Positions 2 through 29,333 are shown, counted from the stretch's first letter. The stretch is 32,000 nt of DNA from an uncultured Chloroflexia bacterium (GCA_963718915.1 CAVRAI010000007.1:180001-212000), one strand, 5' to 3'. Numbers and translations are program-made. Notes: generated from the letters alone by a model not told the origin.

Positions 2-151
2 GGTATCACCGAGGGCCACAAAGAACTGCTTGCCATGATTGACCGGTGGCTGGTTCGCCTCGAAGCGGCAAAGGCGGCGAGCGTCGAGCAGGCAGAGCAG
101 ATCGAGCCAACCAACGGGGAGGGTGCGAACGATGAGGGCCAGATATCCTGA
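2..151 (+). CDS. 3' end of an upstream gene (last ~49 codons, product unknown)
   Basis: The frame is open from the window edge and reads ...GITEGHKELLAMIDRWLVRLEAAKAASVEQAEQIEPTNGEGANDEGQIS, ending at TGA 149-151. The peptide looks like a natural helical sequence. It overlaps the ATG at 132 of the next gene. By contrast, the alternative extension of the next ORF (39-131) is Arg/Ser-rich nonsense. Confidence 0.3.
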   Translation, partial: GITEGHKELLAMIDRWLVRLEAAKAASVEQAEQIEPTNGEGANDEGQIS

Positions 152-2285: not shown

Positions 2286-2517
2286 TTCATCTTCTGACGC
2301 TTCTGTTGTAGGGCGTCCTCCCGCCATCGCGGGGCGGGTGGACAGTTTGCGCGGGAGGAAGTGGCCCTGGCCAGACCGCATCTCCCCGCCGTTCCCGCAC
2401 TACTTCAACCAGGGGGGCGCGATACAAACGTGCATCGCGCCAGGGTGCGCCTGCGTCCTATCCGCAAAGCGACATGGGCAAGCGCACCGAGAACAGAGCG
2501 AAAAAGGAGAAGTACCA

Positions 2518-3138
2518 ATGGCAACCGCGGCGCCTACAACCTATTCGATGGATGGCACATTGCTGGAGGCGTGCTCTTGCGCGGCGCCTTGTCCCTGCTG
2601 GATTGGCGACGACCCGGATGGCGGTACCTGCGACGCCTTCATCGCCTATCACGTTGATCGCGGCCAGGTTCGTGGCATAGATGTTTCAGGGCTTTCGGTG
2701 GTGCTGGTCAATCAGATTCCCGGCAACGTGCTGGCTGGCAACTGGCGCACGGTCATCTACACTGATGACAGGGCGACTCCTGAGCAGCAGCAGGCGCTAC
2801 TCGACGCCTTTGGCGGCAAGCTCGGTGGCGCTCCCGCCCAGTTCGCCGCGCTGATTAGCGAGATCGTGGCCGTCCATCCCGTCCCAATCGAGCACCAGGT
2901 CGAGGGCGGCAAGGGCACGATTCGCGTCGGCCAGGTGGTCTACTCGGAGATGGCGCCCTATACCGACGCGCAGGGGCGGGCGACCTCGCTACACGAGAGT
3001 GTCTTCAGCACCATCCCAGGCTCGCCTGCCTACGTGTCGAAAGCCTCAACCCATCAGGTCAATATCCCCGAACACGGCATGACCTGGGAGTTCTCGAACC
3101 GTAATGCTATCCAGGGCGGATTCCACTTCGAAGCCTGA
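2518..3138 (+). CDS. DUF1326 family protein (Cys-rich, CSCxxPCPC motif)
   Basis: ATG at 2518 follows AAGGAGA (2503-2509). The N-terminus EACSCAAPCPCW matches the DUF1326 motif as I remember it. The ORF-track extension back to 2194 has no coding character. Confidence 0.75.
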   Translation: MATAAPTTYSMDGTLLEACSCAAPCPCWIGDDPDGGTCDAFIAYHVDRGQVRGIDVSGLSVVLVNQIPGNVLAGNWRTVIYTDDRATPEQQQALLDAFGGKLGGAPAQFAALISEIVAVHPVPIEHQVEGGKGTIRVGQVVYSEMAPYTDAQGRATSLHESVFSTIPGSPAYVSKASTHQVNIPEHGMTWEFSNRNAIQGGFHFEA

Positions 3139-3166
3139 GGCAAGACGTACGCAAAGGGGGCGCTCG

Positions 3167-3973
3167 ATGACTACCGCACAGCTCTCTGACCGACCGGCCA
3201 GTGTCAAAGCGCGCCGTCGAGCGCCTGTCCGCTGGCCCTGGGTGGTGGCCGCGCTCGCGTGGGTGGTGGCGCTGCTAGCCACCCTGCTGCGCCTGCGCTT
3301 TCTGATCGATCACCACTGGCTGATCGAGGCGAGTGGGCTGCCATGGCTGCTCGCCGCGCTGGTCTTCCTGGCATGCTGGCAGGTGATGACGCTGGCGATG
3401 ATGCTGCCCTCCAGCATGCCGATGATGAAGATGATGACCTACGCCGCGCGCAAGCAATCGCGCACCTACGCGATTATCGGCGCGTTTGTGGCGGGCTACG
3501 CGGCGATCTGGACAGCCTTCGCGCTCGTCGCCTTCACGGGCGATACATTCATCCACCGGGCGGTGGACACTTGGCCCTGGTTGGCGGCGCATTACTCTCT
3601 GATTGGCGCGGCGACGTTTACCATCGCGGGCGTCTTCCAATTCACGCCACTCAAGGAACGGTGCCTCGCCGCCTGTCGCAGCCCGCTCTCGTTCTTCATG
3701 CGCTACTATCGCGCGGGTGTTGCGCCCGCATGGCGGCTGGGCCTGCGCCACGGCCTCTTCTGCCTGGGCTGTTGCTGGGCGTTGATGCTGGTCATGTTCG
3801 GTGTTGGTATCGGCAGTCTGGCCTGGATGGCGGCGCTGGCGGGCATCATGACCATCGAGAAGGCGGTTCCGGGCGGGCGCTGGATCGGGCCGCTGGTCGG
3901 CATTGCGATGCTGGCGCTGGCGGCGCTCTGGCTCGCCCAACCCGCGTGGCTGGTCATCAGCGTCGCGGGGTGA
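3167..3973 (+). CDS. DUF2182 family predicted metal-binding integral membrane protein
   Basis: ATG at 3167 follows AAAGGGGG. The protein has multiple TM helices and the family-typical WQVMTLAMMLPSSMP motif. It sits directly downstream of DUF1326, which is the usual pairing. Confidence 0.75.
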   Translation: MTTAQLSDRPASVKARRRAPVRWPWVVAALAWVVALLATLLRLRFLIDHHWLIEASGLPWLLAALVFLACWQVMTLAMMLPSSMPMMKMMTYAARKQSRTYAIIGAFVAGYAAIWTAFALVAFTGDTFIHRAVDTWPWLAAHYSLIGAATFTIAGVFQFTPLKERCLAACRSPLSFFMRYYRAGVAPAWRLGLRHGLFCLGCCWALMLVMFGVGIGSLAWMAALAGIMTIEKAVPGGRWIGPLVGIAMLALAALWLAQPAWLVISVAG

Positions 3974-5538: not shown

Positions 5539-6777
5539 CTACACAAAAGCGCTGAAGCCGGTGACGGCCCGCCCGACGATCAGCGTATTCATCTCGCGGG
5601 TGCCCTCATACGAGTAGATCGCCTCGGCGTCGGCCACGAAGCGCCCCACCTGATTTTCCAGCAGGATGCCGTTGCCGCCCAGTAGCTCGCGCGCGAAGCC
5701 GACCGTCTCGCGACACTTGCTTGTGCAAAACGCCTTCGCCAGTGAGGCGTGTTCGTCGTTCATCACGCCCGCGTCCTGCATCTGCGAGAGCCGCAGCACC
5801 ATGCACTGTGACGCGGTGATGTTGCCCAGCATGCCCACCAGCAAGTCCTGCACGAGCTGGAAACTGGCGATGGGTTTGCCAAACTGTTTGCGCTTCTGCG
5901 CGTAGGCCAGCGCGTGCTCGTACGCGCCCATCGCGCAGCCGACCGCCTGCCACGCGACCCCCGCCCGCGTCATCCGCAGCACGGCCGCCGTATCGCGGAA
6001 CGAGCGCGCATTTTGCAGGCGATTCGCCTCCGTGACGCGGCAGTCTTTAAGCGTAATCAGCGCGTTCTGGACGACCCGCAGCGCCATCTTGTCTTCCATC
6101 TTCGTGGCGGTGAAGCCGGGCGTCCCCTTCTCGACCAGGAAGCCCTTCACCTGATTGTCGGCCTCATCGCGCGCCCAGATGATCGTGACATCGGCGAAGG
6201 TGGCGTTGCCGATCCACTTCTTCTGCCCATTGAGCACCCATTCGTCGCCCTCGCGGCGCGCCGTGGTCGTCAGGCCGCCCGATGCCCCTGAGCCAACGTC
6301 TGGCTCCGTCAGCCCGAAGGCGCCAATCTTCTCCATCCGCCGCATCACCGGGAGCCATTGCTGCTTCTGCTCTTCGGAGCCGCAGAGATAGATGCTGCCC
6401 ATCGCCAGACCGCTGTGGACGCCGAAGAACGTGGCAATCGAGGGGTCAATCCGCGCCATCTCAACGGCGATCAGGCCGTCCAGCACTGTCGTCTTCCCCG
6501 CGCAGCCGTAGCCTGTGTAGGAGATGCCCGCAATGTCGAGCGCGGCCATCCTGGGAATCAGCTCGAAGGGGAAGGCGGCGCGTATCCAGTAGTCGTTGAT
6601 GATTGGCGCGACCTCGGCCTCCATGAAGGCGCGCACCCGCGCCAGGATCGCCTTATCGTCCTCGCTCACAGTAGTGGCGATACTGTAGAAATCACCGGTA
6701 ACGGCTGGCAGTTGCCGCTGGGCATGCGCATCTGGGCGCGGCGCTGTGTCTGGCTTCTTGACTCTGGTTGTACCCAC
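5539..6777 (-). CDS. Acyl-CoA dehydrogenase (glutaryl-CoA dehydrogenase-like)
   Basis: ACAD motifs are present: GLTEPDVGSGASG, WIGNATFADV, QFGKPIASFQLVQ and YEGTREMNTLIVGRAVTG. GTG at 6777 is preceded by AAGGAG at 7-nt spacing. The ATG at 6873 would add a non-homologous 32-aa leader. Confidence 0.85.
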   Translation of the reverse strand: MGTTRVKKPDTAPRPDAHAQRQLPAVTGDFYSIATTVSEDDKAILARVRAFMEAEVAPIINDYWIRAAFPFELIPRMAALDIAGISYTGYGCAGKTTVLDGLIAVEMARIDPSIATFFGVHSGLAMGSIYLCGSEEQKQQWLPVMRRMEKIGAFGLTEPDVGSGASGGLTTTARREGDEWVLNGQKKWIGNATFADVTIIWARDEADNQVKGFLVEKGTPGFTATKMEDKMALRVVQNALITLKDCRVTEANRLQNARSFRDTAAVLRMTRAGVAWQAVGCAMGAYEHALAYAQKRKQFGKPIASFQLVQDLLVGMLGNITASQCMVLRLSQMQDAGVMNDEHASLAKAFCTSKCRETVGFARELLGGNGILLENQVGRFVADAEAIYSYEGTREMNTLIVGRAVTGFSAFV

Positions 6778-6893
6778 CCGCGCAGCTCCTTTCAACGGTT
6801 GACGTAGCTGAAAAGTGAACACACTGTCAGCATACGACACAGAGGCGGCTGTCGTCCCGCCGGAGCACGACATGCGGAGCGAGGCCTCCGAAA

Positions 6894-8885
6894 TCAGAAG
6901 GCGCCGCGTCCCGTGAGCACAATCTTGATCGTCATCAGCAGTATCTTGATATCGAGCCAGAGGGAATAATTGCGCACGTAGAAGATGTCATCCTGGGTGT
7001 GCAGATGCAGCACGCGGTTGCTGCGGCCATTGACCTGCCACCAGCCGGTCAGCCCCTGTGGCACCAGTAGCCGCCGATACTGCCAGGCGCGATAGCGTTC
7101 CACGATCCACGGCAGCTCCGGGCGCGGGCCGACGACCGACATGTCGCCCTTCAGGATGTTGAGCAACTGCGGCAGCTCATCCAGGCTGGTGCGCCGCAGG
7201 AAAGCGCCCACCCGCGTGATGTTGGGGTTATCGCGGCGTTTGTGCGCCAGGTCTTTAGTGGCCGTCCGCTCGGCCACCTCTTTCATGCGCCGCTCGGTAT
7301 CCACCCGCATGGTGCGGAACTTGAGCATGACGAAGCGGCGGTTGTGCTGGCCGATGCGCTCCTGCTTGAAGAGCGCCGGGCCGGGTGAATCCAGGCGAAC
7401 CAGCAACGCGATGAGGAGCATCAGCGGCGTGGCGAGGATAAGGCATGGTATGCAGATTGCCAGATCCATCAGCCGCTTGACGCGCGCGTTCCATCCTGAA
7501 ATCGCCGACTCCGTCAGGCCAATCACCGGGATGCCATCAATCTCGTCCACGGCGATCTTGGCGGTCTCCGTTACTACATCGGGCAGTACATAGAGTTGTA
7601 CTGGCAGATTCGCCAGGCTGCTGATGAGCCAGCTTGCCTCATACCGCTCGCGTGGGGAAAGGGCGATCAGCACCAGGTCAACCTGTTTCTCGCGAATGAC
7701 GCGCGGCGCATCACGCAGGTCCCCCAGCCGCCAGCTTATCCAGCGGTGGTAGAGGGCTTCCTGCCAGTGGCTTGGCATATCCGGCTCAGGGTGGAACTCT
7801 CGGCGCGGACCGACGACGCCGATAATTTCGAGGCCAATTGCGCTGCGCGCCGAGACCGCACGCGCGGCATCGATGGCCAGGCGTCCGGTGCCGATGATGA
7901 GAATCCGCCGCCGGGGAGCGCCCAAACGCGCCAGCGGCCGCAAGACGACCCGCGCCAGCGCCAGCAGCACAGCGTCCACAATGACAAACGTCAGCCAGAA
8001 GATACGCATGCGGTCGAGCACCAGAAAATAGAGGATGCCGCTGACGGCTAGTCCGGCAAGTCCAACCGCGATGAAAGCCCGCAGCGGGGCGAAGATATTG
8101 TTGACCCAACTGGAGCGATACACCCCAAGCAACGAAAAGACGACGGGCCAGACGACTGCGACGATTGCCGCAAAGATGAGCGCGTCAGAAGTCTTGAGAT
8201 AGCGAATCTGCGGAACGAGGCTCGCAATGGCGCCGCTGAAGTGTTCGATCAGGACGATCAGCAGCACCGAAAGGCCCGCGTCTACCAGGAGCATCATCTC
8301 ACTCAGACGGGCACGGGCGCGCCGACGATTGGCCAGCAGCCGCTCAATCTCGCGATACTCGGGATTGCGGGAGAGTCGGGCCATGCGGGTCGTGGTGCTA
8401 AATCCCATGTCTTCGTCGTCGGAATCGTCAATAGGCGCTGCCGCTGGCGATCCAGGCGCATGCGCCATCGGTGCGCGCCCAGCGGCAGGATCGCCCTGGC
8501 CATGTTGGCCATACTGGCCATATTGGCCATTGTCGGGGCCAGAGGCGCGTAGCGGATACGAAAGATCAGGGTGTCCGCCGCCGTTCATCGGCGGCGGCGA
8601 GGGAGGCGCCTGAGGCTCGCGTGGGGGCTGATAGGGCGTATAGGTCTGGTTGGGCGCGCCAGAAGCCCCATCGGGCCACGCGCCCTGTCCGTAGTTCTGG
8701 CTAGTGTGCTGCCCGCTGTGCTGCCCGTTGTTCTGCCCGTTGTTCTGCCCTTGATTCAGGCCATTGTGCTGAGTGCTGTGGTCGGACTGCCAGGGATACG
8801 GAGGCTGCGGGGATTGCGGGGACGGCGGGCGCTGATCATCAGGCTCGTGTCCCCCATTGTTCTGCCATCCATGGTGCGTTGTCAT
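6894..8885 (-). CDS. Polyprenyl-phosphate sugar phosphotransferase (bacterial sugar transferase, WbaP/EpsB-like) with a ~190-aa Q/N/G/P-rich N-terminal extension
   Basis: The C-terminal domain reads KRLMDLAICIPCLILATPLMLLIALLVRLDSPGPALFKQERIG...FRTM...DELPQLLNILKGDMSVVGPRP. TM helices and a Rossmann-like central region lie upstream of it. ATG at 8885 is preceded by GGGAGGGG. Confidence 0.85.
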   Translation of the reverse strand: MTTHHGWQNNGGHEPDDQRPPSPQSPQPPYPWQSDHSTQHNGLNQGQNNGQNNGQHSGQHTSQNYGQGAWPDGASGAPNQTYTPYQPPREPQAPPSPPPMNGGGHPDLSYPLRASGPDNGQYGQYGQHGQGDPAAGRAPMAHAPGSPAAAPIDDSDDEDMGFSTTTRMARLSRNPEYREIERLLANRRRARARLSEMMLLVDAGLSVLLIVLIEHFSGAIASLVPQIRYLKTSDALIFAAIVAVVWPVVFSLLGVYRSSWVNNIFAPLRAFIAVGLAGLAVSGILYFLVLDRMRIFWLTFVIVDAVLLALARVVLRPLARLGAPRRRILIIGTGRLAIDAARAVSARSAIGLEIIGVVGPRREFHPEPDMPSHWQEALYHRWISWRLGDLRDAPRVIREKQVDLVLIALSPRERYEASWLISSLANLPVQLYVLPDVVTETAKIAVDEIDGIPVIGLTESAISGWNARVKRLMDLAICIPCLILATPLMLLIALLVRLDSPGPALFKQERIGQHNRRFVMLKFRTMRVDTERRMKEVAERTATKDLAHKRRDNPNITRVGAFLRRTSLDELPQLLNILKGDMSVVGPRPELPWIVERYRAWQYRRLLVPQGLTGWWQVNGRSNRVLHLHTQDDIFYVRNYSLWLDIKILLMTIKIVLTGRGAF
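8496..8531. repeat. Coding 9-bp tandem repeat x4 (YTGGCCATN)
   Basis: The four units are ctggccatg / ttggccata / ctggccata / ttggccatt. On the minus strand they encode GQYGQYGQHGQ inside the sugar-transferase N-terminal extension. Confidence 0.9.
8706..8753. repeat. Coding 12-bp tandem repeat x4 (GTKCTGCCCGYT)
   Basis: The four units are gtgctgcccgct / gtgctgcccgtt / gttctgcccgtt / gttctgcccttg. On the minus strand they encode QGQNNGQNNGQHSGQH. Confidence 0.9.
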
Positions 8886-8980
8886 CTGGTCCGCCCCTCC
8901 CTCAGTTCCTCCACCATGCTGCCGGGATCATCCAGGCCGAATCTGAGGCCACACCGCCTCATTCACAATATCACGTTGCT

Positions 8981-9002
8981 GGGTATTGATTGGGTATTGA
9001 TA
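8981..9002. repeat. 11-bp tandem duplication (gggtattgatt / gggtattgata)
   Basis: Read directly from the sequence. It lies in the ~650-bp intergenic region, about 100 bp upstream of the sugar-transferase start. Confidence 0.9.
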
Positions 9003-9109
9003 GCGCAGACCGTGCCACCATCCTGGCTTTCGCCCGGGATTCTCAACCCACGCATGAGTACTACAACGACAGAGCAGCAAGCAGGTCACCGTTTCCGGGA
9101 TCATTGTTG

Positions 9110-9131
9110 CCAGCTCTCAGCCAGCTCTCAG
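9110..9131. repeat. Perfect 11-bp tandem duplication (ccagctctcag x2)
   Basis: Read directly from the sequence, in the same intergenic region. Confidence 0.9.
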
Positions 9132-9435
9132 TCTGCCAACTGACTTACCATGCGTTGTGTTCGCGCGGAGCCAGCGAGCCATACGTGGCGCGTTTTTCCG
9201 TTCAAGTCTACTCTATCCCATCCCCACTGTCTATGAATATGACGCGAGTGGCGCTGATGATATCCCTCATGTTGTCAGGATCACACATAACTTCACAACC
9301 GATAGTACTGCTCATTTAGCCCGATTTGTGATTCACGACAGCTCTTGTGTATTATCTCCCTCGTGCCTTCGACAAGGCGCAACTCTGATCTCTGGACACC
9401 TGACGGCAGCAAGAATCTGTCGTCGCTGAGAAGAC

Positions 9436-9459
9436 CGCGCGCAGGTACGCGCGTGTTTT
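9436..9459 (+). terminator. Terminator-like or attenuator-like hairpin in the leader of the CHAP-like gene
   Basis: CGCGCG (9436-9441) pairs with CGCGCG (9448-9453) around a 6-nt loop, followed by TGTTTT. The hairpin sits about 75 nt upstream of the TTG start at 9532. The stem is short and the T-tract is short. Confidence 0.25.
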
Positions 9460-9531: not shown

Positions 9532-10299
9532 TTGGCGCATTTTCCTACTGTACTGACTGGCCGTCTGTCCCGCGCGCGCATGCTGTTTGGAGCAGCGCTT
9601 CTGGGAGCGGCGTTCGTAGCGGCACTCGGAGCCAGTGGCTCGATGCCTACGGCTGATGCGGCGAGCAGCCTGCACTATCAGCGCGGTTACTACGTCGTGA
9701 ATGGCATGCTCTGCTACGGCTGGGCAAACGGAACCTATCACTGCACCGGACACTGGCATCGCAGCGGCAGCCAGCTCGTTTCTGATAACCCTTCGTGGGT
9801 CCCCAATGCAGCCTCGACCGGCGGAACCTCCAGCGCCGCCAGCAGGCCCAGCACGTCGGCTGCGAAAGTTACCGGCAGCAACACCGCCGGCCAGCCATGT
9901 CGCAGCTCCTACATGTTCCCGGCGCACATCAGCCAGTGGACGACGCCTGTGAGCTGCTATGCGGGCGTATATCGCGTGAATCCTGCCAACTATGTCTATC
10001 GCTCCGGCTTTGGCTGGTGCAACTGGTGGCCTGAGGTGCTCCATCCACGACAGGCTGACATTCTGTGGGGTCGCGAATATCGCCACTCGTCCGCGCCAAC
10101 ACCCGGCGCGGTGGTCCACTTCAATGGTGGCGTTCAGGGGGCGAGCAGGGATGGTCACTGGGCACAGGTGGTTGCGGTAGCGCCCGATCACTACTGGGTG
10201 CTCGTTACCGAGATGAACTTCACCTGGCGTGGCGCTGGTTGGCAGAAGGTCAACTATCGCTATATCCACGTCGGAGCTGGAGTCACCTTCATTTCGTAG
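9532..10299 (+). CDS. Secreted CHAP-like cysteine peptidase/amidase (cell-wall hydrolase candidate)
   Basis: TTG at 9532 is preceded by GAGAGGGG. The N-terminus is signal-peptide-like (RLSRARMLFGAALLGAAFVAALGASG...ADA). The C-terminus carries FGWCNWWPEV (Cys motif) and DGHWAQVVAV (His motif), which resemble the CHAP catalytic pair. Confidence 0.6.
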   Translation: MAHFPTVLTGRLSRARMLFGAALLGAAFVAALGASGSMPTADAASSLHYQRGYYVVNGMLCYGWANGTYHCTGHWHRSGSQLVSDNPSWVPNAASTGGTSSAASRPSTSAAKVTGSNTAGQPCRSSYMFPAHISQWTTPVSCYAGVYRVNPANYVYRSGFGWCNWWPEVLHPRQADILWGREYRHSSAPTPGAVVHFNGGVQGASRDGHWAQVVAVAPDHYWVLVTEMNFTWRGAGWQKVNYRYIHVGAGVTFIS

Positions 10300-10660
10300 C
10301 TGGCGAGCTACCGGTCCAGGTCAGAGCGTATGGGGGCGTGCTTCATGAGGAGGCGCGCCTCTTGTCGTTTCCATGGGATTGTCCGGCGGCGCGGCGTGCT
10401 GCTCCACACACGCTGCCGGTGGAGGAGTAGCAATGTAGAGTGCCAATCGGATGGTGGCGTTTGCAGTGAGGCGAGCATGCCGCAGGCTGAAGACCTGCGG
10501 CTAATCCCTGCCGCAGCACATCCGCTCACCTCCCAGTGGAAACCGAATGGCCAGGATTAACCGGGGCGCTTCAGGCCACGGCGAGCGAACCCCTGCTCGT
10601 ATCGTGCCCTGTGGTTCCCATTCGCATCGTTTCCCCTTCCCACAATCGCCCGCTCTCGCG

Positions 10661-10666
10661 TATACT
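10661..10666 (+). promoter_or_regulatory. Candidate -10 box TATACT upstream of the TIR-TPR gene
   Basis: TATACT lies 56 nt upstream of ATG 10722. The only -35 candidate is weak (TTCCCA, 10637-10642, 18-nt spacer). Confidence 0.3.
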
Positions 10667-10721
10667 ACGCCTATATCGTGCGTTGCTCGCTTCACCCGAT
10701 GCTCTTTGAGGAGGCTGCCCG

Positions 10722-11915
10722 ATGGCCAACGCCCTGCCGATCTTTGTCAGCCACAGCCACGAGGATAGCGCGTTCTGCCAGGCGCTGGTGACGGCGCTCC
10801 GTGGCGCGGGCGCGGATGTCTGGTTCGACGAGCACAATCTGGGCGCGGGCCATCTGATGGACGTGATCCAGCAGGAGCTGGGGCGGCGCAAAATCTTTAT
10901 CGTCATCCTCTCGAAGCACGCCTTCGCCTCCAAGTGGGTGCGTCGCGAGACGGGCTGGGCGTACTCGCTCTACGACCGCGACCCCACCCGCGTCATCCTG
11001 CCGGTGACGGCCAGCGCCATCGAGCGCGACGACTTCAGCCCCGAAAATAGCTGGCTCTTTCTTGAAGACTTCAAGCGGATCGAGGCGCTGGGGTTCCAGT
11101 CGTATCCGCTGGCCGAGGCGGTGGGCCGCGTGCTGCATGCCCTCGCGCTGACCCCCGCAGGTGAGGCGCCTGCCCCGATGGCCCCACAGCCGACCGAGAG
11201 TGTGGGCGATCTCATCACCCGTGGCAAGGCGCTCCAGCAACAGGGCAAGCATGTCGAAGCGCTGACCCTCTTCGAGCGCGCCACCCAGCTTGATCCCAAT
11301 TCAGATGATGCCTGGTTCAATGTCGGCTACTCGCTCGATGCGTTGGGTCGCTATGAACAGGCGCTAGCTGCCTGTGACCGCGCTCTCAGCCTCAATCGTA
11401 GCGATGCTGTTGTCTGGAATAATAAAGGCAAAGCGCTCCTCGACTTGCAGCGCTACGGTGAGGCACTGGCGGCGTATGAACAGTCTCTGGCCCTCGACCC
11501 TAAATATGTACTCGCCTGGAATGGCAAGGGCAATGCGCTCCTAGGCTTGCAGCGCTACGACGAAGCATTGGTAGCTTATGAGCAGGTGCTTTCCCTCGAC
11601 CTCAAATACACATTCGCATGGAACGGCAAGGGCAACGCGCTCCAGGATGGGTTGGGTCGCTCCCAGGAGGCGCTCACGGCCTTCGAGCAGGCGCTGGCCC
11701 TCGACCCGAGAATGAAGGAGGCCTGGCTTGGCAAGGGCAATGCGCTATATAGCCTCAAGAGGCACGAAGAGGAGATAGCGGCCTACCGGCAAGCGGTTGC
11801 CATTGATCCTACAATAGTAAAAGCATGGAGCTATATGGCCAGTACACTGCGTTCACTGGGGCGCACGCAAGAGGCGGAGGAGGCGGAGGCGCGGGCAAAG
11901 GCGCTCGGCGGGTAG
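10722..11915 (+). CDS. TIR domain protein fused to seven tetratricopeptide (TPR) repeats
   Basis: ATG at 10722 is preceded by GAGGAGG. The N-terminal TIR_2-like domain reads IFVSHSHEDSAFCQAL...VWFDEHNLGAGH...IFIVILSKHAFASKWVRRE, with a Glu at the position of the NADase catalytic Glu. From about aa 165 there are seven 34-aa repeats of the form W-N-KG-AL--L-RY-EAL-AYEQ-L-LDP. Confidence 0.85.
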   Translation: MANALPIFVSHSHEDSAFCQALVTALRGAGADVWFDEHNLGAGHLMDVIQQELGRRKIFIVILSKHAFASKWVRRETGWAYSLYDRDPTRVILPVTASAIERDDFSPENSWLFLEDFKRIEALGFQSYPLAEAVGRVLHALALTPAGEAPAPMAPQPTESVGDLITRGKALQQQGKHVEALTLFERATQLDPNSDDAWFNVGYSLDALGRYEQALAACDRALSLNRSDAVVWNNKGKALLDLQRYGEALAAYEQSLALDPKYVLAWNGKGNALLGLQRYDEALVAYEQVLSLDLKYTFAWNGKGNALQDGLGRSQEALTAFEQALALDPRMKEAWLGKGNALYSLKRHEEEIAAYRQAVAIDPTIVKAWSYMASTLRSLGRTQEAEEAEARAKALGG

Positions 11916-11968
11916 AGCGCGGGTAATGCTGTTGGGGCGAGCGCGGTAGTGGGGAACGCGGGCGGTTA

Positions 11969-12140
11969 ATGTAGTTTCACTTTTTCTACCGAACACCGCG
12001 CGTTGTGGCGGGCGAGGCAGACCGTAGCATAAATGCTACGGCGAATTTCCGCCTCTCAGGCCCATTCGCCGTAGCGTGAGCGCTACGGCTTGCTCGCCCT
12101 ACCACACCGCCGTTGTCCGTCGCACATGCTATAACGACAT
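11969..12140. repeat. Copy A of a ~175-bp nested-palindrome (MITE-like) intergenic repeat
   Basis: The core 12015-12096 is near-identical to 15599-15686 in copy B. It contains hairpins ccgtagcat/atgctacgg, ggcgaat/attcgcc and ccgtagcg/cgctacgg, plus complementary outer arms. The termini are diverged relative to copy B (20 of 27 positions match at the left end). Confidence 0.85.
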
Positions 12141-12187
12141 AAACCGCGCCTGAACGGCCTCACTTTGTTCTGCCACGAAACCCGCCT

Positions 12188-14008
12188 TCACGTCACGCGC
12201 GCTGACCTGGCTGATTTGGCCAGTGCGGGCGTCGGGCGCGCGGGGGGCTTCCGCCGTCGTGACGCGGACGAGTTGGGGGTAGAGTCGGCGGCGCGCGGGA
12301 CGGACACCGTGAAACAGGAACCGTTGCCCAGCGTGCTCTCGACCGAGACGCTGCCGCCCATCGCCTCCGTCAGTTCCTTCACCAGCGCCAGCCCCAGACC
12401 CGATCCGCTGGCCGACTGCATCCGCGCGCGGTCGCTGCGGTAGAAGCGCTCCCAGATGTGCGGCAGGTCGTCCGCTGCGATGCCCTCGCCGGTATCCTTC
12501 ACCTGAAGCAGCACGCGCTCCGCATCAGCCGACGCCGAAATCGCCACGATTCCACCGGGCGGTGTGTGGCGGATGCCGTTGTGCAGTAGGTTCTGCAACA
12601 CCTGATTGAGCCGGTTACTATCCACCAGCGCCAGCGGCAACCCCGGCGCGACCTCCGCGACGACCTCCACCCGCCCCGACTGCCACGCCAGCGGCGCCAC
12701 CATCTCGGCGATCCGCCGCACCTCGTCGCCGACATCCGACGGGACGCAGCGCAGTTCGAGCTTGTTCACCGCGGCGCGGGCAAGCGTAAACAGGTCTTCG
12801 ATCAATGTCTGCAGGCGCCGTGTCTCGTGCTCCATGATGTCCAGATCGTGGCGGAGCGAGGCAGGCGGCGCGTCCTTCTCGTCCCAGCGCGCGCGCGCCG
12901 ACTCCAGATAGCCGCGCAGAGTACTCACGGGCGTGCGTAGCTCGTGCGAGACGCTCGCCACCAGCTCGCGCCGCGCACCCAGCAGGTGCGAGACGGTGTC
13001 GCGCTCGGCCTCCAGATCGCGCACCGCCGCCGACAGGTCCGTCGCCATCGCGTTGAAGTTCGCCTGAAGCTGTGCCACCTCGTCCGCGCCCTCAACCAGC
13101 ACGCGCACGCTATAGTCGCCCTCGCGGAGCGCGTTCGTGGCAGTGGTCAGTTTGCGCAGGCGACGGGTGGTGCGGCGGGCGAAGATATAGGAGAAGAGCA
13201 GCGACGGCGGTAAGACAACCAGTACGGCAATCACGGTCAGAATGCCCATGAGGACCAGGATTGGCAGAATCTGCGGCTCGATACTGTGGGTGAAGGAGAC
13301 TTCCGTGAGCACGATGAACCCAAAGAGCGCGCCAGAGCCGATAACCACCACCAGCAGATGCGCATTGGTCAGCGACCAGACCAGACTGCGGCGGCGCAGG
13401 CGATTCCACCAGACCAATAGCGAGATACCCGTCCGCACGAAGAGAAATGCCCCGGCCAGCACGAGCAGCCAGAGCAGCGAGTAGCGGGAAAGCAAAAAGT
13501 CGACGGCTGTGCTTCGTGCGGACACCTCCCTGATTTGTGCGGGCGACACCCCAGAGATTTCCGTGTGTACCAGCAGCGAGAGAATGATCGTTGGCGCGAT
13601 AGCCAGCACGAATGCGGCGGCGAGGTTGATCAGGAGGCGACACCACCAGCGCTCAGCCAGCCGCATCCGAAAGGCGGCCCAGAGCAAGCTGGCGACGCCA
13701 CTGATGAAAACCGCGACGATGATTCGTCCATAGACCGGCCCGACACCGCCTCCGAATTGTGACGTCATGATGACGAGAGACCAGACCAGCGCAAGCGCCT
13801 GTGGTACCAGCGCCTCGGCAACGGCCTGTATCGGGTGCGCGTGCAGCCAGAGCGTTTTCCATCGCTCTCGAATGAATCGCCACAACATCGCGATCTGTGG
13901 GCGCAGACGCATCCACTCGTCGCGCCACCATATCCCACCCTGTGTTAGCCATACCCGTAACTGGTCCGCAAGATTCGCGGCCTGTCTCATGGGTCTGAAT
14001 GGTCTCAT
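12188..14008 (-). CDS. Sensor histidine kinase (multi-TM N-terminus, HAMP, HisKA, HATPase_c)
   Basis: The H-box is SHELRTPVSTLRGYLE, the N-box is LLHNGIRHTPPGG, and the G-boxes are DTGEGI and GSGLGLALV. About 6-7 hydrophobic helices lie upstream of these. The start at 14008 overlaps the response-regulator stop in an ATGA arrangement. Confidence 0.9.
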   Translation of the reverse strand: MRPFRPMRQAANLADQLRVWLTQGGIWWRDEWMRLRPQIAMLWRFIRERWKTLWLHAHPIQAVAEALVPQALALVWSLVIMTSQFGGGVGPVYGRIIVAVFISGVASLLWAAFRMRLAERWWCRLLINLAAAFVLAIAPTIILSLLVHTEISGVSPAQIREVSARSTAVDFLLSRYSLLWLLVLAGAFLFVRTGISLLVWWNRLRRRSLVWSLTNAHLLVVVIGSGALFGFIVLTEVSFTHSIEPQILPILVLMGILTVIAVLVVLPPSLLFSYIFARRTTRRLRKLTTATNALREGDYSVRVLVEGADEVAQLQANFNAMATDLSAAVRDLEAERDTVSHLLGARRELVASVSHELRTPVSTLRGYLESARARWDEKDAPPASLRHDLDIMEHETRRLQTLIEDLFTLARAAVNKLELRCVPSDVGDEVRRIAEMVAPLAWQSGRVEVVAEVAPGLPLALVDSNRLNQVLQNLLHNGIRHTPPGGIVAISASADAERVLLQVKDTGEGIAADDLPHIWERFYRSDRARMQSASGSGLGLALVKELTEAMGGSVSVESTLGNGSCFTVSVPRAADSTPNSSASRRRKPPARPTPALAKSARSARVT

Positions 14009-24967: not shown

Positions 24968-25522
24968 ATGAGCCTTGCTCGACAACGTGATCTGGCGATG
25001 GTGGGCCTGGGCCTGCTGGTTATCGTACTTGACCAGTTGACCAAACACTGGGTTGTCTCCTATTTCAGCACAAAGCCCGAGGGCTATACCGTGCCCATTC
25101 TTGGCCAGATGCTCTCGCTGGAATATGTGCAGAATCAAGGTGTCGCCTTCAGCCTGCTCGAAGGCCAGACGGTGATGTTCCTCTTCATTGCCATCGCCAT
25201 CGGCGTCATCGGATATCTCTACTGGCGCTCGCGCGAGACCGGCTCGCTGGCGCTCAAGCTGACGTTCGGCCTGGTGCTGGGCGGCGCCATCGGCAACCTG
25301 ATCGACCGCTTCTCGCACAGCTACGTCGTCGACTTCATCCACTTCCAAATTCCAGCCATCCACTTCGACTTTGCCGTCTTTAACGTCGCCGACAGCGCTA
25401 TCTCCATCGGCGTCGTGCTGCTTGCCCTGATGATCTGGCGTATGGGCGCGGAGGGCGAGCGCGCTACCAGCAGCAGAAGCCTTGCGGCCAGCGAGACGGC
25501 GGAAACGCCAGCGGAGGACTAG
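24968..25522 (+). CDS. lspA: Lipoprotein signal peptidase (signal peptidase II)
   Basis: LspA motifs are present: DQLTKHWV, NQGVAFSLL, GGAIGNLIDR, VVDFI and FNVADSAISIG. ATG at 24968 is preceded by GAGGAG. Confidence 0.9.
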   Translation: MSLARQRDLAMVGLGLLVIVLDQLTKHWVVSYFSTKPEGYTVPILGQMLSLEYVQNQGVAFSLLEGQTVMFLFIAIAIGVIGYLYWRSRETGSLALKLTFGLVLGGAIGNLIDRFSHSYVVDFIHFQIPAIHFDFAVFNVADSAISIGVVLLALMIWRMGAEGERATSSRSLAASETAETPAED

Positions 25523-26512
25523 GTGGCTGCCCGCACGAAGAAGTCCGCGCCAAAGCCGACGGACGACCACATACCCGCGCCCACGGTCATCGAAGTGACC
25601 GAGACCCTCGATGGCGAGCGGCTGGATCGCGCGTTGGCGCTGCTATTCCCTGAGCTATCACGCACACGGGCGCAGGCAGCCATCAAGGCGGGGGCGGTGC
25701 GCGTCAATGGGCGGTCGGTTCGTGTCAGCCATCAGCTAGAGATGGGCCAGCGGATCGAGATAGACGCGGGCGCGCTCAAGATTGCTGGCGTCGCGGGGGG
25801 AGAAGGCGGGTCGTTGCCACTGGCCGAGGCGATTCCGCTACGGGTGGTCTTTGAGGACGAGCACCTGCTGGTGGTGGATAAACCCTCCGGGCTGGTGGTG
25901 CATCCCGCGCCGGGCCACGCCACCGGCACACTGGTGAACGCGCTGCTGGCGCACCTGCCGGGACTGACGGCTGGCAGCGATGCGACGCGCCCAGGTATTG
26001 TCCATCGGCTGGATAAGGATACGTCCGGGCTGATCGTGATCGCGAAGGATGCGCCGACGCATACCGCGCTCGCCCAGCAGATGAAGGAGCATAGCACGGT
26101 CAAGCGCTATCTGGCGCTGGTGGAGGGGCGCATGCCCGCGCATGAGGGCGTGATCGATGCCCCCATCGGACGCGATCCTCGCCATCGCCAGCGGATGGCG
26201 CTGGTGAGCGAGGTCAACGGTGGACGCGAGGCGCGCACCCGCTTCAAGGTGCTGCGTGAGGTGCGTGGGCGCTCGCTGGTGGAGTTGCAGCTTGAGACTG
26301 GGCGCACCCACCAGATTCGCGTCCATCTCGCCTCTGTGGGGCATCCGGTCGTCGGCGACAGCGTCTATGGTCGGGCGCAGCTGCCGCTGCCGCCACGCCA
26401 GTTTCTGCACGCCACCCACCTGGAGTTCGTCCATCCGACGACCGGCGAATGGCTCATCTTCGACGCGCCACTGCCACCTGATCTCGCCGATTTTCTCGCC
26501 GCGCAGGAGTGA
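25523..26512 (+). CDS. rluD: RluA-family 23S rRNA pseudouridine synthase (RluD-like, with an S4 domain)
   Basis: The catalytic motif is HRLDKDTSGLIVIAKD, followed by GRTHQIRVHLA. There is an N-terminal S4-like region. GTG at 25523 directly abuts the lspA stop. Confidence 0.85.
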   Translation: MAARTKKSAPKPTDDHIPAPTVIEVTETLDGERLDRALALLFPELSRTRAQAAIKAGAVRVNGRSVRVSHQLEMGQRIEIDAGALKIAGVAGGEGGSLPLAEAIPLRVVFEDEHLLVVDKPSGLVVHPAPGHATGTLVNALLAHLPGLTAGSDATRPGIVHRLDKDTSGLIVIAKDAPTHTALAQQMKEHSTVKRYLALVEGRMPAHEGVIDAPIGRDPRHRQRMALVSEVNGGREARTRFKVLREVRGRSLVELQLETGRTHQIRVHLASVGHPVVGDSVYGRAQLPLPPRQFLHATHLEFVHPTTGEWLIFDAPLPPDLADFLAAQE

Positions 26513-26552: not shown

Positions 26553-26963
26553 CTATCCGATGAAGACATCCGCAGGTACGCCGAATCGCTCGGCCAGTCG
26601 CGTGATGTGCGTGAGCGCCAGGTGGCGTTTGCCCGCCAGCACCTCGGAGACGATGGAGCGCGTGCCGAAGTCGGAGACGAGATCAGCCTGGGTCAGCCCG
26701 TTCTCTTCCATCAGGTAGCGGAGCAGATCGACTCCGGACACTGGCGGAATCACCACATGGGCATTTTCGTAGATCTCGACCAGATCGGTCAATGCCATCA
26801 AGTATTCTTCCTCTGCCTCCGACCGATCGGGGATATCGAGCAGCCGGTCAATCACCGCCAGCGCCTCGTCCAGATGGGCGTTGTTGTGAATCGAGACCAG
26901 GGGGAAGGCACGGACGAGAGCTAGATACTGCTCTTCGGTCGCTTTTTTCATTATCATCGCCAT
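26553..26963 (-). CDS. higA: HigA-family antitoxin (HTH, COG5499-like)
   Basis: The C-terminal HTH reads GLTQADLVSDFGTRSIVSEVLAGKRHLALTHITRLAERFGVPADVF. The gene starts 24 nt downstream of the higB stop. The RBS is GGAAGGGAAGG. Confidence 0.75.
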   Translation of the reverse strand: MAMIMKKATEEQYLALVRAFPLVSIHNNAHLDEALAVIDRLLDIPDRSEAEEEYLMALTDLVEIYENAHVVIPPVSGVDLLRYLMEENGLTQADLVSDFGTRSIVSEVLAGKRHLALTHITRLAERFGVPADVFIG

Positions 26964-26987
26964 CGTTATGCCTTCCCTTCCGGGGTC

Positions 26988-27296
26988 TCATGCTTTCCAG
27001 TCGCCTTTGTCGTACTCCGAATGTGTCAGCAAATGCTTAATATATATCCTCTGTCTTTCGTAGAGGATATGTACAACTAACCGATAGTCATTGCCTTTGA
27101 TGTTAAAGACGGTCTTGCCGCCCACAACGTCAGCCTGAGGGAACGCTTGACGCACTTCACTGAGGTTGTGCCAAGTTGCCTTGCTCGCGATGTTGTACCA
27201 AGCAATGACTTGGCTTTTACAATCTCCGTGCTTGTCGGCAAACTCCATCAAGCGACTCTTTGCGATAACATGCAATCCACGCTCCCTCACTGGCAT
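26988..27296 (-). CDS. higB: HigB-family type II toxin (RelE-fold mRNA interferase, PF09907-like)
   Basis: The sequence HVIAKSRLMEFADKH...AWYNIASKATWHNLSEVRQAFPQADVVGGKTVFNIKGNDYRLVVHILYERQRIYIKHLLTHSEYDK closely follows the HigB_toxin pattern. The toxin-first gene order is typical of higBA. A TTG at 27275 with AGGGAG 6 nt upstream is a probable alternative start. The gene is visibly lower in GC than its flanks. Confidence 0.8.
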   Translation of the reverse strand: MPVRERGLHVIAKSRLMEFADKHGDCKSQVIAWYNIASKATWHNLSEVRQAFPQADVVGGKTVFNIKGNDYRLVVHILYERQRIYIKHLLTHSEYDKGDWKA

Positions 27297-27333: not shown

Positions 27334-27701
27334 AAATTGTCAAGCCCACATCGGCGTCTTGTACAATCTTTACTTTTTACCCCATTCCAACGTATAGTTC
27401 TACGGCTGGGGGAATAGCGCCCCCACCGTGCGACTACATCGAGCCGCCTCCCGAACCGTCCTCACCCGGCGCTTCGCAGCATTCCACACCAAGGATAGAA
27501 GCTGTCTCAGGCAGGGAGCTTGATCGCAGTGAAAGGGACTCCATGAGTACCGATGGCAGCATGCACACCGAGCAACCAGCTCGCGGCATGCTTGTTGGCA
27601 CCTATCTCAGTTGGTACATCGGCTGCTTCCAGAGCGGAAACAGCTAGCGCCGCCCGCGCGTAGAATGCGCCGCGCCGCGCATTGTAGAGGAGATTCGCTA
27701 C

Positions 27702-29333
27702 GTGTTCGGACCCCACCTGATTATCGATGGTTCCCGTTGTAACATCCGCAAGCTCGCAGATCGCATCCTCGTCGAGCAAGTGTTGAATGACTATCCCGCC
27801 GCAATCGGCATGACCAAAATCGGCGGCCCCTATATGTTCGAGTACCAGGCGCCCGACCCCGCCTATTCCGGCGTCTCCGGCCTGGTCGTCATCGCCGAGA
27901 GCCACATCGCCATCCACACCTTCCCGGAGTTGGATTACTTCACGATGGACATCTTCTCGTGCAAGAACTTTGACCATGAGAAGGCCATCGAGTACATCCG
28001 CACCGCGTTCGACGTGGAGGAGATGGATCGGATGCTGGTGCAGCGCGGCCTCTCGTTCAAGGGGCCACACCACGGCAAAAACGGCGCGACCGATGAGCTG
28101 ATCGCCGCCGCCGAGGCCCGCCTGCGGGCTGGCATCATCAGCAAAGAGCCAGCCCTGCCCGATGTCACGCCTGACGACACGCCTGACGACACGCCTGGCG
28201 AGCAGCCCAGTGAGATGCTGAGCGATGAGCGCGCCGCCATCCTGGCAAGTCGCGCCGCCGCCGGGCAGGATGCCGCCGGTGGTCGGATGCTCTGGCCGCA
28301 GTATGGCGTGACGCCCGATGTTGGCACATATGGCGCCGCCACAACAGTTGACGCCTGCGAGCCGTGCGCGCGTGGCGGGGCCACTGTCGTCGCGCTGACC
28401 GGGGACCAGCACGCGCCGACCGACGCCAATGGCACGCCGCTACCCGTCGCCGAGCCGGTGCTGGTCAATCCGACCGCCTCGATGAGCGGCCTGCTGGATA
28501 AGATGGCGGCCACCGGCGGGCAGGCGCGCGCGCTGGGGCTGGCGCTGGCCGAGTGGGAGCGGCTGGTACGCGCCGAGAAGACGGCGATTGCGCTGACGCT
28601 TTCCGCGCCAGTCATTGCCGAGGGCATGCGCGAACTGCTGGTCTACGCCGTCGAACACGGCTACGTCGATAGCATTATCGCCAGCAGCGACAACCTGCTT
28701 GCGGATCTCTACGAGGCGCTTGGCCACGCGCATTTCGCCAGCGACGACGGCGCGATGGTGATGACCGACGAGGGCCGGGAGCACGCGCTGGCGGTCTTCC
28801 GCGACTTCCTAGCGGAGCAGCAGCCGGGTATCGCCGCGTCGGAACTGTGGCAGCGGCTGGGCGCAATCCTGCCGACGACGGCTCCACGCAAGGGGCTGCT
28901 TCAGGCGGCGGCGCAGACCGGAACGCCTATATATACGCCCGACCTCGGCGTCAGCGCGTTCGGGGCGGCGTTGTTGTCTCCACAGTCCGACGGAGCGGCC
29001 TTCGTGGTGGATGCTGGCGCCGATACACTGGCGCTGGCACGTCTGCTTGCGGCGCGCGATGCGTTCGGCGTTATCCAGTGTGGCGCGGGCGCGTCCGATG
29101 CGCTGCTGGCCCAGGCGCAGGCGGCCACGGGTCTGCTGGGCCTGCCGACTCCGGCGCTGGCGGGTGTCGTCGCGTTGGGCGCGCAGCCCTTCGCCACGGG
29201 CAGGCATGCCATCGCCGTCCGTGCGGACGCCTCGCTGGCGCTGCCACTGCTGGTCAGCGGGCTGGCCCAGCGCCACCCACAGACGCGAGCGCGAGCCGCC
29301 GCCAGCACAGCGAAAGCTCCCGCGCTGGCGTAA
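27702..29333 (+). CDS. Fusion: pyruvoyl-dependent S-adenosylmethionine decarboxylase proenzyme (SpeH/SpeD class 1) plus a divergent deoxyhypusine synthase-like domain
   Basis: GTG at 27702 is preceded by AGAGGAG. The N-terminus reads GLVVIAESHIAIHTFPELDYFTMDIFSC (the ES self-cleavage site is E66-S67). A repeat-encoded linker follows. The C-terminus reads ALTLSAPVIAEGMRELLVYAVEHGYVDSIIASSDN...TPIYTPDLGVSAFG...GAQPFATGRHAIAVRADASLALPLLVSGLAQ, which is DHS-family-like. Confidence 0.8.
   Translation: MFGPHLIIDGSRCNIRKLADRILVEQVLNDYPAAIGMTKIGGPYMFEYQAPDPAYSGVSGLVVIAESHIAIHTFPELDYFTMDIFSCKNFDHEKAIEYIRTAFDVEEMDRMLVQRGLSFKGPHHGKNGATDELIAAAEARLRAGIISKEPALPDVTPDDTPDDTPGEQPSEMLSDERAAILASRAAAGQDAAGGRMLWPQYGVTPDVGTYGAATTVDACEPCARGGATVVALTGDQHAPTDANGTPLPVAEPVLVNPTASMSGLLDKMAATGGQARALGLALAEWERLVRAEKTAIALTLSAPVIAEGMRELLVYAVEHGYVDSIIASSDNLLADLYEALGHAHFASDDGAMVMTDEGREHALAVFRDFLAEQQPGIAASELWQRLGAILPTTAPRKGLLQAAAQTGTPIYTPDLGVSAFGAALLSPQSDGAAFVVDAGADTLALARLLAARDAFGVIQCGAGASDALLAQAQAATGLLGLPTPALAGVVALGAQPFATGRHAIAVRADASLALPLLVSGLAQRHPQTRARAAASTAKAPALA
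28167..28202. repeat. Coding 12-bp tandem repeat (acgcctgacgac x2 plus a degenerate third unit)
   Basis: It encodes TPDD-TPDD-TPGE in the interdomain linker of the fusion protein. Confidence 0.9.

Follow-up and report, generated by a model that had tools for sequence, protein, structure and literature searches.

In the current study, we examined a 32,000-nucleotide stretch of DNA from an uncultured Chloroflexia bacterium (GCA_963718915.1 CAVRAI010000007.1:180001-212000), hereafter the window, which holds at 27702..29333 on the + strand a gene that fuses a pyruvoyl-dependent decarboxylase of the SpeD fold to a domain of the deoxyhypusine synthase (DHS)/SpeY fold. We propose, with a probability of roughly 0.6, that its product is an arginine decarboxylase of the SpeDA type followed by a dead SpeY domain, which is kept by selection and stems from a bifunctional ancestor. 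The protein belongs to the SpeD fold and, within it, probably to the SpeDA functional group; it is not a functional DHS or SpeY.

The gene is a single open reading frame (ORF) of 543 codons, as described in the original prediction, which had been made from the sequence alone; it has a GTG start and ends in a stop codon, and profile searches with both halves confirmed the two domains that this frame joins, PF02675 and PF01916, above cut-off. A Shine-Dalgarno sequence, GAGGAG, can be read at 27688..27693 (+), 8 nt 5' of the GTG, and the N-terminus of the fusion, MFGPHL, lines up with the N-termini of stand-alone homologues. No riboswitch or other RNA element was found 5' of the fusion gene, and promoter and terminator scans around it gave matches at chance level only. 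Within 5.8 billion proteins searched, more than 120 full-length homologues with the same pair of Pfam domains were found at 57-90% identity, and all those with a named organism come from metagenome-assembled genomes (MAGs) of Ktedonobacterales. A scan of GTDB species representatives placed the gene in 51 species (Ktedonobacterales/Ktedonobacteria or Chloroflexia-labelled MAGs; 43-90% identity), with an uninterrupted ORF of 470-586 aa in 46 of the 51 genomes.

The decarboxylase core spans aa 1-116 (27702..28049, +). Pfam AdoMet_dc PF02675 matches aa 5-116 over its whole length (profile positions 1-107 of 107; E 1e-26; 94-97 bits against a cut-off of 25), the family profile matches PDB 1TLU with E 3e-12, and the core has dN/dS values of 0.01-0.10 and a predicted local distance difference test score (pLDDT) of 88-98. 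Alignment to Thermotoga maritima SpeD (S63, H68 and C83) places the predicted self-cleavage site at E66-S67 (27897..27902, +), where Ser67 would become the pyruvoyl group, the catalytic His at H72 (27915-27917, +; T. maritima H68) and the catalytic Cys at C87 (27960-27962, +; T. maritima C83). The roles of the processing Ser and of the catalytic His and Cys in the SpeD fold have been described previously (PMC10407285). S67, H72 and C87 do not vary among 27 aligned family members, and the pyruvoyl module is complete, with the predicted cleavage site where it had been expected. The core is followed by a conserved extension, aa 117-153 (GLSFKGPHHG..GATDELIAAAEARL; 28050..28160, +), with a mean majority-residue frequency of 0.90, dN/dS of 0.00-0.12, no Pfam match and pLDDT of 55-74. 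With a shallow, near-invariant alignment, AlphaFold2 (AF2) gave the N-domain a pLDDT of only 30-45, and a mixed alignment of 140 sequences was used instead.

The second half, aa 254-525 (28461..29276, +), has the DHS/SpeY fold and very probably is a pseudoenzyme. Pfam DS PF01916 matches aa 264-473 (E 5e-25; 89-91 bits against 27) over profile positions 2-228 of 288 only, so that the match stops before the region of the catalytic Lys. The NCBIfam equivalogs for DHS and SpeY (NF002006, NF001980, NF002699) all remained far below their cut-offs, with 35-96 bits against 304-500, and the best DHS score of the domain was 96-98 bits against a cut-off of 434. Human DHS numbering was transferred through a family-profile alignment to solved DHS chains, and a separate direct alignment was made with intact SpeY-type proteins. 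At the positions that we take to form the NAD site of the human enzyme (105-109 SNLIS, 131-133 TAG, E137, D238 and G283; UniProt P49366 and DHS structures) and around them, the domain reads A/P/A for S105/N106/S109, S-S-D-N for T131-A132-G133-G134, L/A for E136/E137, V for D238, A for D243, A for G283, D for K287 and A for H288, the last of which removes the catalytic His.

Motif by motif, LSAPVI replaces GLSGAM/TSN, ASSDN replaces STGAN/TTAGG, GVSA replaces GDSS/TDGS and GAGASDAL replaces GGG-PKNF/GGGVVKHH. The vestige of NAD motif 1 is LSAPVIAEGMR (aa 300-310; 28599..28631, +), where intact SpeY has GLSGAMVPGGMR and human DHS has GYTSNLISSGIR. That of NAD/substrate motif 2 is ASSDNLLADLYE (aa 327-338; 28680..28715, +), against STGANLFHDVHE, and the 14-aa segment that would follow it (DVEL..DRxxD) is deleted. 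The GGG-PKNF vestige, CGAGASDALLAQ (aa 460-471; 29079..29114, +), is the one that carries the A, D and A at human G283, K287 and H288. The "DGSD...EAVSWGK329" loop has no counterpart in the domain, where a hypervariable remnant, AQPFATGRHAI (aa 494-504; 29181..29213, +), lacks some 14-18 residues including SWGK. The alignment with intact SpeY-type proteins agrees on the motif losses and gives two deletions of about 14 residues. The original prediction had seen degenerate NAD motifs, and the losses proved wider than it had noted; it had also read the catalytic WGK as TGR, and the Lys is indeed absent, but the loop is deleted rather than substituted and T499-G500-R501 is not its positional equivalent. 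Two close relatives have K where the window protein has the Arg of that TGR, the others have E, Q, D or a gap, and no column within aa 474-505 is invariant across the family. Properly aligned, the domain thus has neither a Lys at the catalytic position nor intact NAD motifs, and this holds across the family, since the Lys loop occurs in none of the 46 uninterrupted genomic copies and the NAD motifs are likewise gone in them. The chemistry of SpeY and CdmS is NAD-dependent and needs a conserved Lys (CdmS K299; HsDHS K329) (PMC10981699), and the combined loss of the NAD motifs, the His and the Lys loop therefore excludes catalysis of the SpeY/CdmS type.

A series of related proteins suggests how this state was reached. 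When a profile of the dead domain was run against 1.84 billion cluster representatives, 31 matches fell below 1e-30, a small family that includes P0253. This 581-aa protein on a 6-kb metagenome contig is the same fusion, with an N-domain 77.5% identical to that of the window protein, the same connector motif as the window family (WPQYGVTPDYGTYG) and the domain-boundary motifs of the family, NPTASISGLLDK and ALAQRFPGVR (the WPQYG, NPTAS and LAQR motifs). Its DS core is canonical, with GLSGAM, STGANLFHDVHE, GDSS, IGGGTPKNF and TTDAPYWGGLSGCTFSEAQSWGK (SWGK), and reaches 397 bits with the DHS model; it is the sole intact fusion in the database searched. Four loci (L046, L047, L048 and L059) keep GLSG(A/P)(M/L), the NLFHDLHE (H..HE) pair and the 14-aa insert, while GGG-PKNF and the Lys loop are gone. 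The main clade, which includes the window, has lost all active-site motifs, and L049-L055 show further deletions. In the Armatimonadota locus L005, two separate genes lie side by side, one for the decarboxylase and one for a SpeY (NF001980, 537 against 450 bits), in the domain order of the fusion. Based on the intact fusion P0253 and the intermediate stages of decay, we consider it probable, with good confidence, that a bifunctional arginine decarboxylase-SpeY enzyme was the ancestor of the family. The simplest history to be read from these sequences would be that adjacent genes gave rise to an intact bifunctional fusion, which then lost its SpeY active site step by step. A gene for a 400-aa protein of the CN_hydrolase family precedes P0253 on its contig (L009, 1747-2949); it may encode a divergent carbamoyl-polyamine amidase or be unrelated, and its identification as AguB (N-carbamoylputrescine amidase) was ruled out by a score of 25 bits on the aguB model.

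The substrate of the decarboxylase half is probably arginine and not S-adenosylmethionine (SAM), as judged from sequence relationships and gene neighbours. Many proteins called SpeD are arginine (SpeDA) or ornithine (SpeDC) decarboxylases, which are told by their association with agmatinase, AguA/B and SpeY (PMC10407285), and the diverse SpeY enzymes tested so far use agmatine (Li et al. 2026, PMC13625781; see also PMC10981699). The nearest stand-alone relatives of the window's decarboxylase, at 48-54% identity, come from Sericytochromatia, Armatimonadota, Bacteroidota, Schekmanbacteria and DPANN archaea, taxa that overlap with those of the validated "third emergence" SpeDA clade. A look-up of the accessions of these relatives among experimentally validated SpeDA proteins gave no match. 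We surveyed the neighbours of stand-alone relatives in 80 metagenome loci, 69 of them with room downstream. The next gene on the same strand belongs to the arginase family in 42 of these 69 and passes the agmatinase equivalog TIGR01230, and an agmatinase is likewise downstream in a second subclade (P0177, P0197). A DS gene lies downstream of the decarboxylase in L005, where it is a bona fide SpeY, and in L101. The idea that stand-alone relatives usually adjoin speY was ruled out, with an adjacent DS gene in one of the 80 metagenome loci. Spermidine synthase is absent among the 22 most recurrent neighbour clusters of the relatives, and no speE was found in the window or in 737 kb flanking fusion genes. 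In some loci of stand-alone relatives, namely L006/L007 (Bacteroidota), L063, L068, L071, L074, L076, L091 and L139, the gene downstream of the decarboxylase is not an agmatinase but encodes a leucine-rich-repeat protein of 245-278 aa or a protein without Pfam match.

Validated SAM decarboxylases (AdoMetDCs; T. maritima SpeD and the two SpeD1 domains of Fig. S5 in the literature set) are 31-34% identical to the window's domain and fall outside its clade in a neighbour-joining tree; they have HxWPE and FTCG where the window has HTFP and FSCK, and the window has a 2-residue insertion before GVSG. The SpeDC signature (Gln, Thr, Phe and Tyr in VQLIETS...GHFAN...AYxD) is missing from the window protein, which reads VVIAESH...IHTFPE...FTMD and is 20-22% identical to validated SpeDC domains. 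The "gamma proline" diagnostic (PMC10407285) was not used, as there are two candidate prolines and SpeY- and agmatinase-linked relatives keep HTFP. Given the agmatinase and SpeY neighbours of the clade and its low identity to AdoMetDCs, an arginine decarboxylase of the SpeDA type is the most likely assignment, and the SAM decarboxylase of the original prediction was not borne out, since the neighbours of this SpeD subclade are agmatinase and SpeY rather than speE and its sister is fused to an intact SpeY.

In one fusion locus, these genes lie close together. On the 1.1-Mb contig of L043, an agmatinase (6036-7058; TIGR01230, 262 against 174 bits) is followed by the fusion (10001-11617) and by a SpeY (11894-13000) that is intact, with GGGSPKNF and TWGK and 537 bits on NF001980 against a cut-off of 450. 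Read from sequence, L043 would hold a full enzyme set from arginine through agmatine and G44G to homospermidine, with dead and live DS paralogues side by side. The live SpeY is 58% identical to the Armatimonadota SpeY and 28% to the fused dead domain, and the two belong to different DS subfamilies. L026 has an agmatinase orthologous to that of L043 (69% identity) at 9 kb from the fusion. The interval from the agmatinase to the fusion in L043 also holds two genes (7440-9458), by eye LarC-/LarB-like candidates for nickel-pincer cofactor biosynthesis.

Several points weigh against the reading that we propose. Substrate specificity within the SpeD fold is not reliably readable from sequence (PMC10407285), and the window protein passes TIGR03330, "adenosylmethionine decarboxylase", marginally (82-86 bits against a cut-off of 75.65) and keeps the HTxPE proline, as do its agmatinase- and SpeY-linked relatives. 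The loop before GVSG is PDPAYSG in the fused family and PEDWG in stand-alone proteins, which might affect specificity. A SpeY adjoins one of about 35 flanked fusion loci and an agmatinase lies within 10 kb in two, most loci being without polyamine neighbours. The adjacency of SpeD and agmatinase also fits the N1-aminopropylagmatine route, which has a true AdoMetDC and needs speE. The ancestor-like intact form rests on one 6-kb metagenome contig. Lastly, a specific role of the dead domain, as scaffold or as partner, is something we infer, and we put it at somewhat less than even odds.

The strongest alternative is a true AdoMetDC that the dead DHS-like domain regulates or stabilises or, in a variant, one in which that domain is the relic of a spermidine-using enzyme and ties decarboxylated SAM (dcSAM) to polyamine status. 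Besides passing TIGR03330, the protein keeps E-S-H, HTFPE and C87 as in AdoMetDC, it is labelled AdoMetDC in public sources, and a SpeD beside an agmatinase-like gene would also be expected if spermidine were made by the aminopropylagmatine route. However, TIGR03330 scores the agmatinase- and SpeY-linked relatives as high or higher (84-102 bits), which is the annotation problem described in PMC10407285, and the pass was ruled out as evidence for AdoMetDC. The identity to validated AdoMetDCs is also well below the 48-54% shared with the agmatinase/SpeY-linked clade, the sister protein has an intact SpeY as its fusion partner while all tested SpeY enzymes use agmatine, and spermidine synthase is found neither among the recurrent neighbours of more than 80 relatives nor in the flanks of the 50 fusion loci. 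Overall, we consider a true AdoMetDC rather improbable.

While its active site is gone, the DS-like domain has retained its fold. AF2 models aa 240-530 with a pLDDT of 91-99, and in a structure comparison, one of the checks suggested earlier, the top 50 Foldseek matches in the PDB were all DHS (7CMC: E 7e-14, TM score 0.72-0.76 on the target). Nei-Gojobori dN/dS over 14 pairs was 0.09-0.29 for the DS-like domain and 0.01-0.10 for the decarboxylase, with mean pairwise identities of 57% and 91%, respectively. The DS-like domain is under purifying selection. The confident DHS fold, together with this selection, suggests that the dead domain has a non-catalytic role. Of the two possibilities that the original prediction had offered for this half, the pseudoenzyme or regulatory domain controlling an AdoMetDC is supported as to the pseudoenzyme, by motif loss, fold and dN/dS, and not as to the AdoMetDC; the other, a new polyamine-transfer enzyme coupled to dcSAM, finds no support, with the NAD and substrate motifs all gone and the loop hypervariable with indels.

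The stepwise decay, with the extra deletions in L049-L055, a dN/dS 2-10 times that of the decarboxylase and the interruption of some copies could also be expected if the C-terminal domain were a functionless, decaying remnant that persisted only because its deletion would disturb the expression or folding of the decarboxylase. Against this stand dN/dS values well under neutrality in about 50 species, down to 43% identity, an ORF that is open in 46 of 51 genomes and a fold predicted with pLDDT above 90; moreover, the interrupted copies come from long-read assemblies, which are prone to indel errors. We regard such a remnant as improbable. Still less probable is a neofunctionalised enzyme or small-molecule binder with a new, NAD- and Lys-free active site, which would correspond to the polyamine-transfer enzyme of the original prediction. 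It would agree with the purifying selection, with the invariant polar residues D335, E338, H344, D414, D437, Q523, R524 and R529 and with the family-specific motifs NPTASxSGLLDK and GLAQRxPxxR, but all motifs of the DHS/SpeY active-site tunnel are replaced, two segments are deleted, the loop is hypervariable with indels, and the lineages erode stepwise with no new motif set fixed. Most of the invariant residues are shared with canonical DS proteins or found at the ends of the domain, and the pairwise identity is 57% against 91% for the catalytic N-domain.

That the fusion is an assembly or gene-calling artefact of two neighbouring genes, as the separately called halves in L008, L045 and L056 and the ancestral layout of adjacent genes in relatives (L005) could suggest, is practically negligible in view of the 46 independently assembled genomes, from many studies and assemblers, in which the ORF is uninterrupted, the more than 120 full-length database proteins, and the conserved connector motifs that cross the junction. 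The small number of split copies proved to be frameshifts in long-read assemblies, in which the two parts abut without an intergenic spacer or a second start, and they were ruled out as natural two-gene forms. The genome survey thus settles in favour of a real fusion the concern, voiced with the original prediction, that the two genes might have been joined in assembly.

Based on these observations, we propose the following scheme for the arginine decarboxylase with a selection-kept dead SpeY domain. The proenzyme would cleave itself at E66-S67 into a beta chain of aa 1-66 and an alpha chain with an N-terminal pyruvoyl group, and the alpha chain would carry the connector and the dead domain. 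The pyruvoyl module would decarboxylate L-arginine to agmatine. In the ancestral fusion, arginine would have been converted to agmatine and further to N1,N9-bis(guanidino)homospermidine, while in the present protein the C-terminal 270 residues would no longer carry out the NAD-dependent homocoupling of agmatine; in the Ktedonobacterales lineage, the SpeY half would have become a pseudoenzyme that is still kept by selection. The dead domain could serve as a scaffold for the oligomerisation or stability of the decarboxylase, which is plausible because proteins of the DHS fold form tetramers and class 1b SpeD enzymes form dimers. It could instead be a docking or regulatory partner of a separate live SpeY, analogous to trypanosomatid DHSc/DHSp (PMC3663545). 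A more specific proposal, which we find unlikely on balance, is that the domain acts as a "prozyme", which would activate or assemble its own decarboxylase, or would dock on a live SpeY tetramer to hand over agmatine or switch on homospermidine synthesis, possibly through the invariant WPQYGxTPDxGTYG motif of the connector.

This motif, GRMLWPQYGVTPDVGTYG (aa 194-211; 28281..28334, +), comprises 18 near-invariant residues kept in 47 of 47 fused sequences, the intact P0253 included. It lies in a hypervariable connector that AF2 predicts as disordered (pLDDT below 50), is more conserved than the DS-like domain and is missing from stand-alone decarboxylases and SpeY proteins; judged from its conservation, it may be a docking peptide. 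The connector itself varies in length among relatives, with dN/dS of 0.10-0.36, and contains three copies of a 12-bp tandem repeat (CACGCCTGACGA; 28166..28201, +; TRF score 65) that encodes TPDD/TPDD/TPGE. This repeat had been noted before, one base off at 28167-28202. Among close relatives its copy number is three in the window, two in P0001 and zero or one in others, and the connector grows and shrinks through repeat slippage. At the other end of the protein, a variable C-terminal tail (ending in ...APALA) and the stop codon occupy 29277..29333 (+). Though this tail is variable, its end (within 29277-29330) is (E)PALA in 19 of the 46 copies and ..LA in 28, and SKEPALPD after the decarboxylase extension (aa 147-154; 28140-28163) resembles it. 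The PALA-type tail might act as a tag for recognition or degradation, or as an intramolecular mimic.

Only two genes recur beside the fusion, lspA (24968-25522, +; Pfam Peptidase_A8) and rluD (25523-26512, +; Pfam PseudoU_synth_2), which are syntenic in 15 fusion loci. No polyamine gene was found in the window and none is recurrent in the flanks of the fusion loci, and the genes downstream of the fusion in the window are unrelated. Between rluD and the fusion, a pair of higB (RelE-like toxin, PF09907) and a helix-turn-helix antitoxin is inserted at 26553-27296 (-). Elsewhere in the window, 10722-11915 (+) encodes a protein of 397 aa in which an N-terminal TIR domain precedes multiple TPR repeats, an architecture typical of bacterial NADase or immune-type effectors. 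An ORF of 748 aa at 39-2285 (+) combines an alpha/beta-hydrolase (aa 60-312) with the C-terminal domain of a family 28 glycosyltransferase (aa 588-741), an unusual fusion; it is a long ORF with a TTG start and may be over-extended. Adjacent genes for DUF1326 and PpoB2 (copper chaperone) proteins at 2194-3973 (+) are poorly characterised and probably metal-related.

The families and their order in the fusion are shared with the SpeDA-SpeY(-SpeB) clusters for agmatine-dependent homospermidine synthesis of Capsulimonas corticalis, Ca. Marinimicrobia and DPANN archaea (PMC10407285, PMC13625781) and with CdmS of Thermus thermophilus (PMC10981699). The likeness extends to the N-domain, which falls in the agmatinase/SpeY-linked clade, and to L005 and L043, which show the layout of separate genes. 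Unlike in those clusters, both parts here form one polypeptide, whose SpeY half is without NAD binding, His and Lys. A dead DHS-fold paralogue is likewise kept in polyamine metabolism in trypanosomatids (DHSc/DHSp and AdoMetDC/prozyme; PMC3663545, PMC5201418; PDB 6DFT). Our domain matches the DHSp chain 6dft_B in both sequence and structure searches, and L043 has a dead copy beside a live paralogue. However, the dead copy is here bacterial and fused in cis to a decarboxylase, and in L043 the dead domain shares only 28% identity with the live SpeY, from which it also differs in DS subfamily. SpeD1-SpeD2 of Victivallis vadensis (PMC10407285) also has an active N-terminal pyruvoyl enzyme with a degraded C-terminal partner and intact bifunctional relatives, but there the partner is a second SpeD-fold domain (ornithine decarboxylase) and the retained activity is AdoMetDC. 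With the class 1b AdoMetDCs (T. maritima SpeD, 1TLU/1VR7; TIGR03330), the window protein shares the fold, the Ser, His and Cys and the ES-H cleavage motif, and it passes their model, while it differs in its identity of 31-34%, in HTFP for HTWP, FSCK for FTCG and the insertion, and in neighbours that point to agmatine.

In the literature searched, no report was found of a natural fusion of SpeD or SpeDA with DHS or SpeY, or of a dead SpeY domain in bacteria, in keeping with the earlier remark that no fusion of AdoMetDC to a DHS-like domain was known; nor did we find data there on polyamines of Ktedonobacteria. The parts are known, namely the SpeD fold, SpeDA neofunctionalisation, SpeY/CdmS, fusions with degraded domains and the dead DHS of trypanosomatids, whereas their combination had not previously been reported in that literature.

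These results bear on annotation, since "adenosylmethionine decarboxylase" or "deoxyhypusine synthase family protein" is the label given to the genes of about 50 species and to hundreds of metagenome proteins, which, as our evidence suggests, have neither of the activities so named. As a natural "Rosetta stone", the fusion links a decarboxylase derived from SpeD to SpeY, and it gives independent genomic support for bacterial SpeY pathways run on agmatine. From adjacent genes through an intact and a partly eroded fusion to a fully dead domain, the family also provides an unusually complete series in the making of a pseudoenzyme, under measurable selection and in a tractable system. Should the dead domain prove regulatory, it would parallel, in bacteria, the prozyme systems of trypanosomatids. 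As a prozyme, if this is true, it would be the first case of control by a pseudoenzyme in bacterial polyamine biosynthesis, independent of the trypanosomatid DHSp and AdoMetDC prozyme and with its intermediates extant. Overall, the fusion also says something on the polyamine metabolism of uncultured soil Ktedonobacteria.

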